Part shown: positions 93-52,279 of the stretch, one piece after another
Layout: each line of letters starts with the position of its first letter
Numbering within the stretch: position 1 is the first letter of the stretch
DNA from: Octopus vulgaris
Taxonomy: Eukaryota
DNA: 64,000 nucleotides
Direction: 5' to 3'
NCBI GenBank assembly: GCA_951406725.2
Contig: OX597815.1
Location: 93,558,001-93,622,000 of the forward strand
Notes under the pieces: generated by a model
Told to the model about the DNA's origin: nothing
Seen by the model: only the letters and a program-made list of their open reading frames with translations
Databases searched by the model: none
Translations under genes and position numbers: made by a program

Positions 93-2520
<2,428 letters not shown>

Positions 2521-2676
2521 ACATAAGGGACTAAAGCCATCTGAATATGGCTAGGGACAGGGCAGGGTGGTGGGGGTGTTACTGTTGCATTTAGCCCCAG
2601 GCGAACATCGACGTCACCAGAAAGGCTCGACACCGTCACGGTGCCCTTAACCTGCAAAGGGAGGTAATTCCCCGAT

Positions 2677-2750
2677 GAAGCGGAAACCACACACGGACCA
2701 TGGTTTCAAGGTGTATTGCCTATCATCGGCGTGTGGTAGGCCTCCGCTTC
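2677..2750 (-). ncRNA. Type I hammerhead ribozyme, monomer 1
   Basis: Reverse complement reads cacacg-CCGATGA-tagg caataca cctt-GAAAC-catg-GTC-cgtgtg, with extended stem I gaagcgga/tccgcttc. Confidence 0.8.
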
Positions 2751-3036
2751 CTCGACGAATTCTCACTCTGCAGGATTTTCTTATATAGATTTTCAAGCAA
2801 AATACATTTGCTGATTTCGAAAATCTGTTCGAAAGCAATAATAATTCTCTAAAAGGGATATAGACAGTAACTGCTCGATAACATAAGGGACTAAAGCCAT
2901 CTGAATATGGCTAGGGACAGGGCAGGGTGGTGGGGGTGTTACTGTTGCATTTAGCCCCAGGCGAACATCGACGTCACCAGAAAGGCTCGACACCGTCACG
3001 GTGCCCTTAACCTGCAAAGGGAGGTAATTCCCCGAT

Positions 3037-3110
3037 GAAGCGGAAACCACACACGGACCATGGTTTCAAGGTGTATTGCCTATCATCGGCGTGTGGTAGG
3101 CCTCCGCTTC
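3037..3110 (-). ncRNA. Type I hammerhead ribozyme, monomer 2
   Basis: Identical to 2677-2750, offset by 360. Confidence 0.8.
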
Positions 3111-3396
3111 CTCGACGAATTCTCACTCTGCAGGATTTTCTTATATAGATTTTCAAGCAAAATACATTTGCTGATTTCGAAAATCTGTTCGAAAGCAATA
3201 ATAATTCTCTAAAAGGGATATAGACAGTAACTGCTCGATAACATAAGGGACTAAAGCCATCTGAATATGGCTAGGGACAGGGCAGGGTGGTGGGGGTGTT
3301 ACTGTTGCATTTAGCCCCAGGCGAACATCGACGTCACCAGAAAGGCTCGACACCGTCACGGTGCCCTTAACCTGCAAAGGGAGGTAATTCCCCGAT

Positions 3397-3470
3397 GAAG
3401 CGGAAACCACACACGGACCATGGTTTCAAGGTGTATTGCCTATCATCGGCGTGTGGTAGGCCTCCGCTTC
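3397..3470 (-). ncRNA. Type I hammerhead ribozyme, monomer 3
   Basis: Identical to 2677-2750, offset by 720. Confidence 0.8.
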
Positions 3471-3756
3471 CTCGACGAATTCTCACTCTGCAGGATTTTC
3501 TTATATAGATTTTCAAGCAAAATACATTTGCTGATTTCGAAAATCTGTTCGAAAGCAATAATAATTCTCTAAAAGGGATATAGACAGTAACTGCTCGATA
3601 ACATAAGGGACTAAAGCCATCTGAATATGGCTAGGGACAGGGCAGGGTGGTGGGGGTGTTACTGTTGCATTTAGCCCCAGGCGAACATCGACGTCACCAG
3701 AAAGGCTCGACACCGTCACGGTGCCCTTAACCTGCAAAGGGAGGTAATTCCCCGAT

Positions 3757-3830
3757 GAAGCGGAAACCACACACGGACCATGGTTTCAAGGTGTATTGCC
3801 TATCATCGGCGTGTGGTAGGCCTCCGCTTC
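3757..3830 (-). ncRNA. Type I hammerhead ribozyme, monomer 4
   Basis: Identical to 2677-2750, offset by 1080. Confidence 0.8.
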
Positions 3831-3942
3831 CTCGACGAATTCTCACTCTGCAGGATTTTCTTATATAGATTTTCAAGCAAAATACATTTGCTGATTTCGA
3901 AAATCTATATAAGAAAATCCTGCAGAGTGAGAATTCGTCGAG

Positions 3943-4016
3943 GAAGCGGAGGCCTACCACACGCCGATGATAGGCAATACACCTTGAAACCATGGTCCGT
4001 GTGTGGTTTCCGCTTC
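3943..4016 (+). ncRNA. Type I hammerhead ribozyme in the inverted arm
   Basis: Stem I cacacg(3958-3963)/cgtgtg(3998-4003); core CCGATGA 3964-3970; stem II agg/cct with loop CAATACA; GAAA 3986-3989; palindromic stem III ACCATGGT; predicted cleavage after GTC at 3997. Confidence 0.8.
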
Positions 4017-4218
4017 ATCGGGGAATTACCTCCCTTTGCAGGTTAAGGGCACCGTGACGGTGTCGAGCCTTTCTGGTGACGTCGATGTTCGCCTGGGGCT
4101 AAATGCAACAGTAACACCCCCACCACCCTGCCCTGTCCCTAGCCATATTCAGATGGCTTTAGTCCCTTATGTTATCGAGCAGTTACTGTCTATATCTCTT
4201 TTAGAGAATTATTATTGC

Positions 4219-4231
4219 TATATATATATAC

Positions 4232-4263
<32 letters not shown>

Positions 4264-4289
4264 ATACATATACATATATATACATATAC

Positions 4290-4320
<31 letters not shown>

Positions 4321-4321
4321 C

Positions 4322-4394
<73 letters not shown>

Positions 4395-4409
4395 CATATA
4401 TATATATAC

Positions 4410-4478
<69 letters not shown>

Positions 4479-4531
4479 CATACATACATACACACACATA
4501 CATACATACATACATATATATATATATATAT
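4219..4531. repeat. (TA)n/(TACA)n microsatellite
   Basis: Read directly from the sequence. Confidence 0.95.
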
Positions 4532-51010: not shown

Positions 51011-52279
51011 TTGGGTTGTCAAGAAAATCTAGCGGAATTTTTAATTTGGGTCTTAAATGATGTATTTTCAAATTCATTTTTGTTAAATTACTTTGAATTT
51101 ATATATCATTTTAGAGCCTGTTTTTTGTTCTATCTAATCATGTTACTCTATTTCTTTTTGAATAATTAGGCCATTTCTTCCAGAATGGACAAAAAGCAAA
51201 TTCACACAATTTTCTTATTCCAGTTCAAGCTAGGCCAAAAAGCTGCTGAAACAGCTCGCTATATCAATGATGCATTTGGCCCAGGAACCACTAATGAACG
51301 TACAGCACAATGGCAGTTCAAGAAATTTTGTAGTGCTGATGAAAGTCTTGAAGATGATAAGCATAGTGGTTGGCCAGTGGATGTTGACAATGTTCAACTA
51401 AGAACCTTAGTCGAAGCCAATCCATGCACAACTGTTTGAGAGCTTGCTTTTGAATTAGACGTAACGTATATGACAATTTCTAACTACTTGAAAGAGATTG
51501 GAAAAACAAAAATAATTGAGAAATGGGTACCGCATGAATTGAACGACAACCAAAAAAACGCCATTTTGAAGTGTCGTCTTCCCTTCTTTTACACAACAAG
51601 AATGACCCATTTCTCGACCGGATTGTGACTTGTGATAACAAGTGGATTCTGTATGACAACTGGCAATGCTCAGCTCAGTGGTTGGACAAAGACAAAGCTC
51701 CACAGCACTTCCCGAAGCCAAAGTTGCACCAAATGAAGGTCATGGTGACTGTTTGGTTGTCTGTGGCCGGTCTCATCCATTTCAGCTTTTTGGATCAAGG
51801 TGAAACCATTACGCCGAAGAAGTACTATCAGCAAATGGATGAAATGCATAAGAAGCTCCGACAACAACAGCCAGCATTGGTCAATAGAAATGGACCAATT
51901 CTTCACCACAACAAAGTTAGGCCACATGTCACACAACTGACACTGCAGAAGTTGAACGAATTGGGCTACAAAACTCTGCCTCATCTGCCATATGCACCAG
52001 ACCTCTTGCCTACTGACTACCACTTTTTCAAGCATCTCGACAACTTCCTGCATGAGAAATGCTTCAAAAACCAAGACGATGCCAAACAAGTCTTCAATGA
52101 CTTCATCACCACCAGAACACAGGATTTTTACGCTAATGGCATAAATGAACTTGTTTCACATTGGCAAAAGTGTGTTGATTCTGGAGTTTATTTCGATTAA
52201 TAAAGCTTTGTTTGAGCCGATACATGTGCATCTGAATTTAAAAAGGTTAAAAACTTCAAGAATTTTCTTGACAACCTAA
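51011..52279 (+). mobile_element. Full-length mariner element with TIRs and TA target duplication
   Basis: TA|ttgggttgtcaagaaaat ... attttcttgacaacctaa|TA; about 1.27 kb. Confidence 0.95.
51185..52200 (+). pseudogene. Mariner transposase pseudogene
   Basis: [38 protein letters not shown] motifs; stop at 51437-51439 and a frameshift near 51555. Confidence 0.92.

Follow-up and report, generated by a model that had tools for sequence, protein, structure and literature searches.

Octopus insertions of a 360-nt hammerhead retrozyme have two inverted arms with fixed start sites and resemble products of Penelope-like elements

It was found that a 64,000-nt stretch of the Octopus vulgaris genome (hereafter, the window) contains an insertion of a non-coding 360-nt retrozyme, whose two inverted arms start from fixed sites. 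I propose, with a probability of roughly 0.6, that the insertion was made by a borrowed enzyme of a Penelope-like element (PLE) reading round one RNA circle. On the testable features of its sequence, the element would be a non-LTR retrozyme with a variant ribozyme core and a predicted hammerhead: the 360-nt units, within the roughly 170-400 nt of such retrozymes, are arranged head to tail, each unit has one hammerhead fold and no ORF, the family is dispersed, and the genome bears PLEs.

The anatomy of the insertion is summarized in Table 1. A previous sequence-only reading had described 2518..4219 as one tandem run of about 3.9 identical 360-bp monomers. The monomers are indeed identical in arm A, where self-comparison at a lag of 360 gave zero mismatches. 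The single run holds for 2518-3906, whereas the sequence at 3907-4219 is inverted, is connected to that run by an 8-nt overlap, and carries a fifth hammerhead on the plus strand. Since both outer ends correspond to 3′ ends of the ribozyme-sense RNA, arms A and B meet head to head. This two-arm inverted anatomy and the Penelope-type tail were missed by that reading and are the most informative features of the locus. Its other descriptions of the locus were reproduced. The longest stop-free frame in the unit has 90 codons, and there is no ORF or LTR structure; GC content is 46.9% in the unit versus 36.4% in window 4601-64000, and the CpG o/e ratio is 0.86 versus 0.29. GUC is present at each of the four predicted minus-strand cleavage sites, and the outer ends lie 178 and 222 nt beyond the cleavage site, as claimed. 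No PLE protein match was found in the window, and the unit has no RT/GIY-YIG ORF, i.e., it is not an autonomous PLE. Target duplication is not resolvable at this locus, where (TA)n adjoins both outer ends. A short non-TA insert lies within the left TA array (window 2344-2372), and its core motif recurs at window 5418. Far from the insertion, a 220-codon open frame (window 51538-52200, plus strand) presumably resembles the catalytic part of a mariner-type transposase. The unit with its own junction was also seen outside this assembly, in contigs from three public runs (three studies, two organisms); these contigs are 390 nt long, and in them the 360-nt unit is joined to itself, with 1, 1 and 6 letters differing. 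They support the unit and the junction, and are silent on RNA, strand or circles.

Table 1. Features of the retrozyme insertion and its flanks (positions in the window)
Feature	Position	Strand	Details
Left (TA)n target array, 2.4 kb	135..2517	.	TRF period 2, sequence
Arm A, 3.86 identical 360-nt units	2518..3906	ribozyme sense minus	
Outer end of arm A (fixed site A)			phase 0, 178 nt past cleavage site
Hammerhead motif 1, type I	2688..2736	-	core CCGAUGA, palindromic CAUG loop 3, predicted cut after GUC 2696
Hammerhead motif 2	3048..3096	-	predicted cut after 3056
Hammerhead motif 3	3408..3456	-	predicted cut after 3416
Hammerhead motif 4	3768..3816	-	predicted cut after 3776
Hammerhead motif 5	3957..4005	+	predicted cut after GUC 3997
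Internal copies of the 44-nt "tail" between start sites B and A	2834..2877, 3194-3237, 3554-3597	-	
Head-to-head arm junction	3899..3906	.	overlap 8 nt
Arm B, inverted 0.87 unit	3907..4219	ribozyme sense plus	one mismatch, 4197
Outer end of arm B (fixed site B)			phase 316, 222 nt past cleavage site
Terminal 44-nt tail	4176..4219	+	this insertion end only
Right (TA)n target array	4220..4531	.	

The putative ribozyme is a type I hammerhead with a 6-bp stem I, the core CCGAUGA, a 3-bp stem II above a U-U mismatch, GAAA, and a 2-bp stem III that has the palindrome CAUG as its loop and is followed by GUC. The core is the U4C variant of the canonical CUGAUGA. The Rfam search suggested with the first description gave no hammerhead family match in the window even at E ≤ 10, nor in four related loci. 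Thus, the hammerhead call rests on the pattern, the stems and their covariation. In 17 natural copies, 95% of the cells are paired, compared with 3-58% in slid controls, and two-sided changes are present in stems II and III, representing few independent events. Two other candidates were dismissed: the Rfam miRNA matches at 3805-3968 merely reflect the inverted junction, and a plus-strand second hammerhead at 2672 fits the pattern but lacks stems I and II, its match being the complement of the segment that pairs with the real core.

Among 239 motifs in 99 loci of the young family to which the window insertion belongs, 187 have CCGAUGA, 41 have CCGACGA, 10 have UUGA, and one has the canonical C3U4. 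The sole canonical motif sits at a junction, leaving 238 of the 239 non-canonical. Loop 3 is a palindrome in all three of its forms, CAUG, CUAG (one young subfamily), and UCGA (a sister family). Palindromic loops 3 are tied to dimeric cleavage in one report (PMC4209133), and U4C is described in another as a change that considerably reduces in vitro activity, yet permits viroid infectivity (PMC3088659). It is likely that the window ribozyme is slowed by its U4C core. The predicted cutting of a transcript into exact 360-nt monomers loses some of its force with this core. Subfamilies with a UUGA core (C3U opposite G8) have still spread (L101, L102, L119, L120, L125, L141, and L142); either there is selection for slow ribozymes, or cleavage can be dispensed with. 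It may be argued that the ribozyme is under selection, as the sister family keeps the fold with a canonical core and loop 3 alternates among palindromes. The sense strand of the monomer folds with a z-score of -5.3 and the other strand with -2.3. For the monomer as a circle, z is -4.9, and the predicted pair probability of stem II is 0.08. With stem II mostly unformed, the predicted circle would be shielded from recutting.

How far is this element spread in the genome? A search with the monomer gave 761 candidates; among the best 40 scored, many are 99-100% identical, on many contigs. Exact TA-A junctions number 535 genome-wide and exact TA-B junctions 221, with 0 for the reversed-pattern controls. 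The family is young and has at least 535 insertions in (TA)n. These junctions and near-identical copies bear out two expectations of the sequence-only reading, a recent insertion and many dispersed copies of a retrozyme. A third one, differing permutation points among the dispersed arrays, was contradicted. I analyzed 99 loci, 39 chosen by score and 60 chosen by the A end (the first further ones on contigs 1-2); degraded fragments at L051 and L142 were dropped from the arm counts. The outer ends lie at phase 0 (site A) or phase 316 (site B), with 44 nt between the two. Two arms are present in 79 of the 99 loci, and 74 of the 79 have one A end and one B end (A+B). In the score-chosen set, 28 of 39 loci are two-armed (24 A+B, one A+A, one B+B, and two with one end elsewhere). 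In the A-chosen set, 51 of 60 are two-armed, 50 of these being A+B and the remaining one clipped by the edge of the extracted sequence. Of 80 B-class ends, 62 lie exactly at phase 316. The inner arm ends are variable; the junctions have a 0-8 nt overlap in 51 cases and a gap in 27. Median arm lengths in the A-chosen set are 199 nt (A) and 301 nt (B), the maximum is 3281 nt, and the longest arm seen corresponds to 9.1 units. Direct repeats of 12-15 nt, junction microhomology included, flank five loci (L033, L054, L068, L107, and L141), all of them imperfect TA targets.

Some arms contain internal template jumps, which land at phases 180-181 in L106 and L108 and near start site A or B in L049, L059, and L051. 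In L114, one pass bears a patch of variants typical of other subfamilies, which reflects either a template switch or a later conversion. Among the papers listed by literature searches, no title or opening of an abstract describes this family, a cephalopod retrozyme, or a two-arm fixed-end retrozyme insertion. The main text of a 2026 repeat paper on Octopus vulgaris contains neither "ribozyme" nor "retrozyme". The family may exist in some repeat library under another name.

The genome also has a sister retrozyme family, with 2621 candidates, of which 40 were scored, and about 60% identity to the window unit. Its unit is 356-358 nt in length (three loci), the core is the canonical CUGAUGA, and the loop is UCGA. 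It has a fixed A end (219 exact junctions) and B ends as well, the latter at loci chosen by a B-end query. This family seems older and larger (L180-L209; L178:5780-6018), with two fixed ends in TA. An intermediate motif, combining the CCGAUGA core with the UCGA loop, was found at L153:5254-5301.

The two arms of one insertion share their sequence variants. Over 74 two-armed loci (a set that leaves out L051, L102, and L142), lineage variants are concordant between the arms in 161 cases and discordant in 5, and a locus-private variant is present in both arms at 6 of these 74 loci. The A and B arm lengths correlate (rho 0.54, n = 49), a relation that is weaker or non-significant in some subsets. 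In the window, arm A ends at phase 308 and arm B starts at phase 316, which hinted at twin priming as in L1, with the second primer at the stop of the first cDNA. In L1 twin priming, a single RNA is copied from primers on two target strands, and microhomology serves to join the cDNAs; the first site is the poly(A) end, and the second site is variable and internal. In contrast, both sites are fixed here, with 44 nt between them, and the stretches copied by the two arms overlap. Since site B is fixed while the inner ends vary, the L1-style mechanism was rejected.

Could the second arm be a copy of the first? In such a fold-back, priming on the target would give one arm, and self-priming of the first cDNA the other, as proposed for the rotifer Penelope (PMC3846280). 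The window junction is indeed a hairpin with an 8-nt overlap, the variants of L045 lie in mirror register about the fold, and one arm is contained in the other at 41 of 59 clean A+B loci (17 loci were skipped in this test, and 4 were left out beforehand). However, neither arm is contained in the other at the remaining 18 loci, which excludes fold-back copying there, and the second arm would have to end exactly at A or B whatever the turn. I regard fold-back as quite improbable. It is very improbable that the arrays are a satellite, i.e., solo PLE ends amplified locally in DNA by unequal crossover into multimers without an RNA step. A DNA-level route is discussed in a 2026 preprint (10.64898/2026.07.22.740005), and the partial variants of L038 and L064 could stem from local duplication. 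Against this stand hundreds of scattered short arrays with identical fixed ends in TA, the common haplotype in both arms, the variable inner truncation, and the target-site repeats. The complete identity of the arm A units, next to a 2.4-kb TA run, might also raise the suspicion of an assembly or polishing artefact, such as collapsed units or a fold-back chimeric read; polishing could mask some unit differences or alter the unit number. This explanation is extremely improbable in the face of the equal anatomy at 74 of the 99 loci with different junctions and haplotypes, and of the public-run contigs, which close the 360-nt unit with variants of their own.

It is very likely that PLE-type twin internal priming made these insertions. 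The anole PLE was reported to cut and extend both target strands, preferentially in AT-rich DNA, and to start at two adjacent internal sites, the interval between which becomes the genomic tail (PMC11167929). PLE insertions often include an inverted 5′-truncated copy and a tail of 30-40 bp at one end, and some clades favor (TA)n (PMC8557442). All of these marks are present in the octopus insertions: two fixed 3′ ends, an inverted truncated copy, a one-ended tail, a (TA)n target, and a short duplication. The tail, at 44 nt, is slightly above the published range, and sites A and B form the base of one predicted stem-loop. As the start site was reported to be no different between the strands in vitro for the anole enzyme (PMC11167929), the A+B rule is not predicted by that study.

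Are suitable PLEs present in the octopus genome? It contains 6136 GIY-YIG candidates; among 150 scored, at least 16 have an open 781-codon frame, with RVT_1 (just below the curated cut-off), GIY-YIG, and a CxxxxCxxC linker. At 17 loci of this family, 12 copies end at one site and 3 at a second site 38 nt further; of the other two, one has both ends on inverted arms and one was uncalled. A second local PLE family has a two-end pattern likewise, with a tail of about 30 nt. The young PLE family (L160-L176) has, upstream, a separate and overlapping frame with as many as 479 codons, as well as direct pLTRs, and its ends lie 38 nt apart in TA; a pattern search for a compact hammerhead in the sense strand of this 781-codon family found none. 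The second family (L178:5006-5045, L179) has a putative minimal hammerhead, whose core is also CCGA (U4C). By sequence, the U4C core appears to occur in more than one element type of this genome. No sequence match between the retrozyme unit and the pLTRs or ends of PLEs was found in 50 PLE loci (from the 150 scored of the 6136 candidates). A match to the tail at L178 was considered as a PLE end and turned out to be a separate old retrozyme copy (L178:5780-6018). At L101:1-402 and L037:573-2610, a PLE copy ends and the TA run that follows immediately contains a retrozyme insertion, which may reflect a shared target or nesting of one insertion in another. These PLE fragments were rejected as partners, as TA separates them from the retrozyme and only the target is shared.

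The template of this priming was, I think with some preference, a monomer circle rather than an uncut linear multimer. Arms run through the cleavage site 247 times, and 3 substitutions and 0 indels were counted within phases 174-181, in accordance with the earlier proposal that the template is continuous over the cleavage junction. Only 4 of 177 inner ends lie at phase 176, and no enrichment of cDNA stops at the cleavage site is claimed; genome-wide, the phase-176 stop pattern gave 7 matches, of which 4 are true truncations (already counted), phase 177 gave 1, and two uninspected controls gave 1 and 3. From the scar-free crossings and the lack of a clear pile-up, it follows that the template is not a set of sloppily joined cut monomers; it is either an uncut multimer or a circle closed by ligation. 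At 33 loci with at least 3 units (183 passes), substitutions relative to the window occur in every pass in 43 cases, in some passes in 11, and in one pass in 69. For each of five haplotypes there is an arm with 4-9 near-identical units, the 16-18 passes of L133 are uniform, and a private variant of L106 is present in 6 of 6 passes. Thus, a new haplotype goes through a monomer stage and is then found again in long arrays. Rolling reverse transcription would do this in one step and is favored by it. The rolling-circle origin suggested from the sequence alone is hence favored by the haplotype homogeneity at other loci, and the window by itself fits a circle or an uncut multimer equally.

In the competing account, the PLE twin priming is the same, but long homogeneous source arrays are transcribed into a linear multimer that stays uncut; the weakened ribozyme would cleave only rarely, and the family would spread without circles. 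Homogeneous source arrays would yield equal homogeneity, and a source of about 10 units would suffice for the longest arm of 9.1 units. The U4C or C3U core in 238 of 239 motifs also speaks for it, as does the anole PLE, for which unprocessed RNA is reported as the dominant substrate and main template in vitro (PMC11167929). Partial variants are of mixed kind: 5 of the 11 miss just one pass, and true mixtures are found in L045 (5/6 and 2/4 passes), L038 (2/8), and L064 (3/16, three variants). A monomer circle gives no simple explanation of these mixtures, which a multimer would accommodate. Single-pass variants common to several loci number 5 versus 2.1 expected under a crude uniform null (p = 0.048). 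On the other side, a separate source, long and homogeneous, would be required for each of the five haplotypes, and would itself have to be built from a monomer; the sister loci L107, L133, and L135 (36 passes) have no single-pass variant in common; and the palindromic loop 3 has been maintained through three sequences. I consider the linear multimer less likely than the circle. The jumps in L106 and L108 beside the 3′ end of a cut monomer are a weak hint that cutting occurs. In L045, the variants shared by the arms are missing from the outermost unit of arm B, and their mirror register may reflect hairpin conversion, fold-back, or a mixed multimer template.

For the circle-templated reading, the following course is proposed. 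A genomic array would be transcribed, slow and probably dimeric hammerheads would free some monomers, and a host ligase would circularize them, as in other retrozymes. A PLE protein would then cut both strands of the (TA)n target, with site A used for priming one strand and site B for priming the other, and these sites would flank one stem-loop of the same RNA. The fixed sites, the A+B pairing, and the shared haplotype behind this step are direct observations; the enzyme and the hairpin are the inferred parts. Each cDNA would pass the cleavage site and stop at a variable point, as seen in the scar-free crossings and the inner ends, and the two cDNA ends would be joined head-to-head with the 0-8 nt overlap or short gap seen at the junctions. 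A more specific version can be put forward tentatively: a PLE RT dimer primes both strands of one TA cut at the opposite sides of one stem-loop, and both enzymes roll round the 360-nt circle up to nine times. If this is true, the family records, in an animal genome, target-primed reverse transcription of the rolling-circle type, the A+B rule gives each strand one start site, and the ribozyme cores are selected to be slow.

The movement of animal retrozymes and the circle as its template have been proposed before, not shown. The present family offers unusually direct genomic evidence for the mobilization of a retrozyme by PLEs, as hundreds of near-identical insertions define the start sites exactly and provide haplotype markers and a rule for the pairing of strands. 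Since the insertion anatomy, a predicted 360-nt RNA, and intact PLE proteins come together in one genome, the mobilization mechanism is directly testable in a defined in vitro assay. The A+B rule would refine the only in vitro PLE study and explain the tail at one end of PLE insertions.

Metazoan non-LTR retrozymes, as described by Cervera & de la Peña 2020 (PMC7229834), are likewise short tandem non-coding units with one type I hammerhead each (350-390 nt in mussel), and likewise have a short stem III with a palindromic loop, strong self-pairing, and PLEs in the genome. The U-U at the base of stem II is also found in axolotl Amex2 (PMC7229834). The words "inverted" and "target site" are absent from the main text of that paper, in which PLEs are merely proposed as candidates, whereas the octopus insertions have two inverted arms, fixed ends, and a non-canonical core. 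The low stem II probability (0.08) in the predicted circle is unlike most animal circles described there. Li, Clavereau & Pollet 2026 (10.64898/2026.07.22.740005) regard vertebrate retrozymes as non-autonomous PLE derivatives, which is an equal conclusion as to the use of PLE machinery. As presented in the preprint, that view rests on co-occurrence and pLTR homology in Xenopus, with 35 genomes and no mollusc named; here, the basis is the insertion anatomy, and pLTR homology was not found in the 50 PLE loci. MRC1 and other non-autonomous PLEs of Chlamys (PMC8557442) are, as here, non-coding, multicopy head-to-tail insertions moved by a PLE. At the 3′ end, these elements are similar to their autonomous partners, and most elements of Chlamys are reported to be without hammerheads.

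A close correspondence in insertion structure is seen with the EN+ PLEs (Frangieh et al. 2024, PMC11167929; Craig et al. 2021, PMC8557442; Arkhipova et al. 2013, PMC3846280). As described for them, two start sites bound the tail and both strands are extended, and they share with the octopus insertions an inverted 5′-truncated copy, an AT-rich or (TA)n target, a short target duplication, and a type I hammerhead upstream of the start sites. In contrast to the EN+ PLEs, the octopus element has no ORF and consists entirely of one 360-nt unit, which is read as many as nine times. Its tail is 44 nt rather than 30-40 nt in length, and site A is used on one arm and site B on the other in 74 of the 79 two-armed loci.
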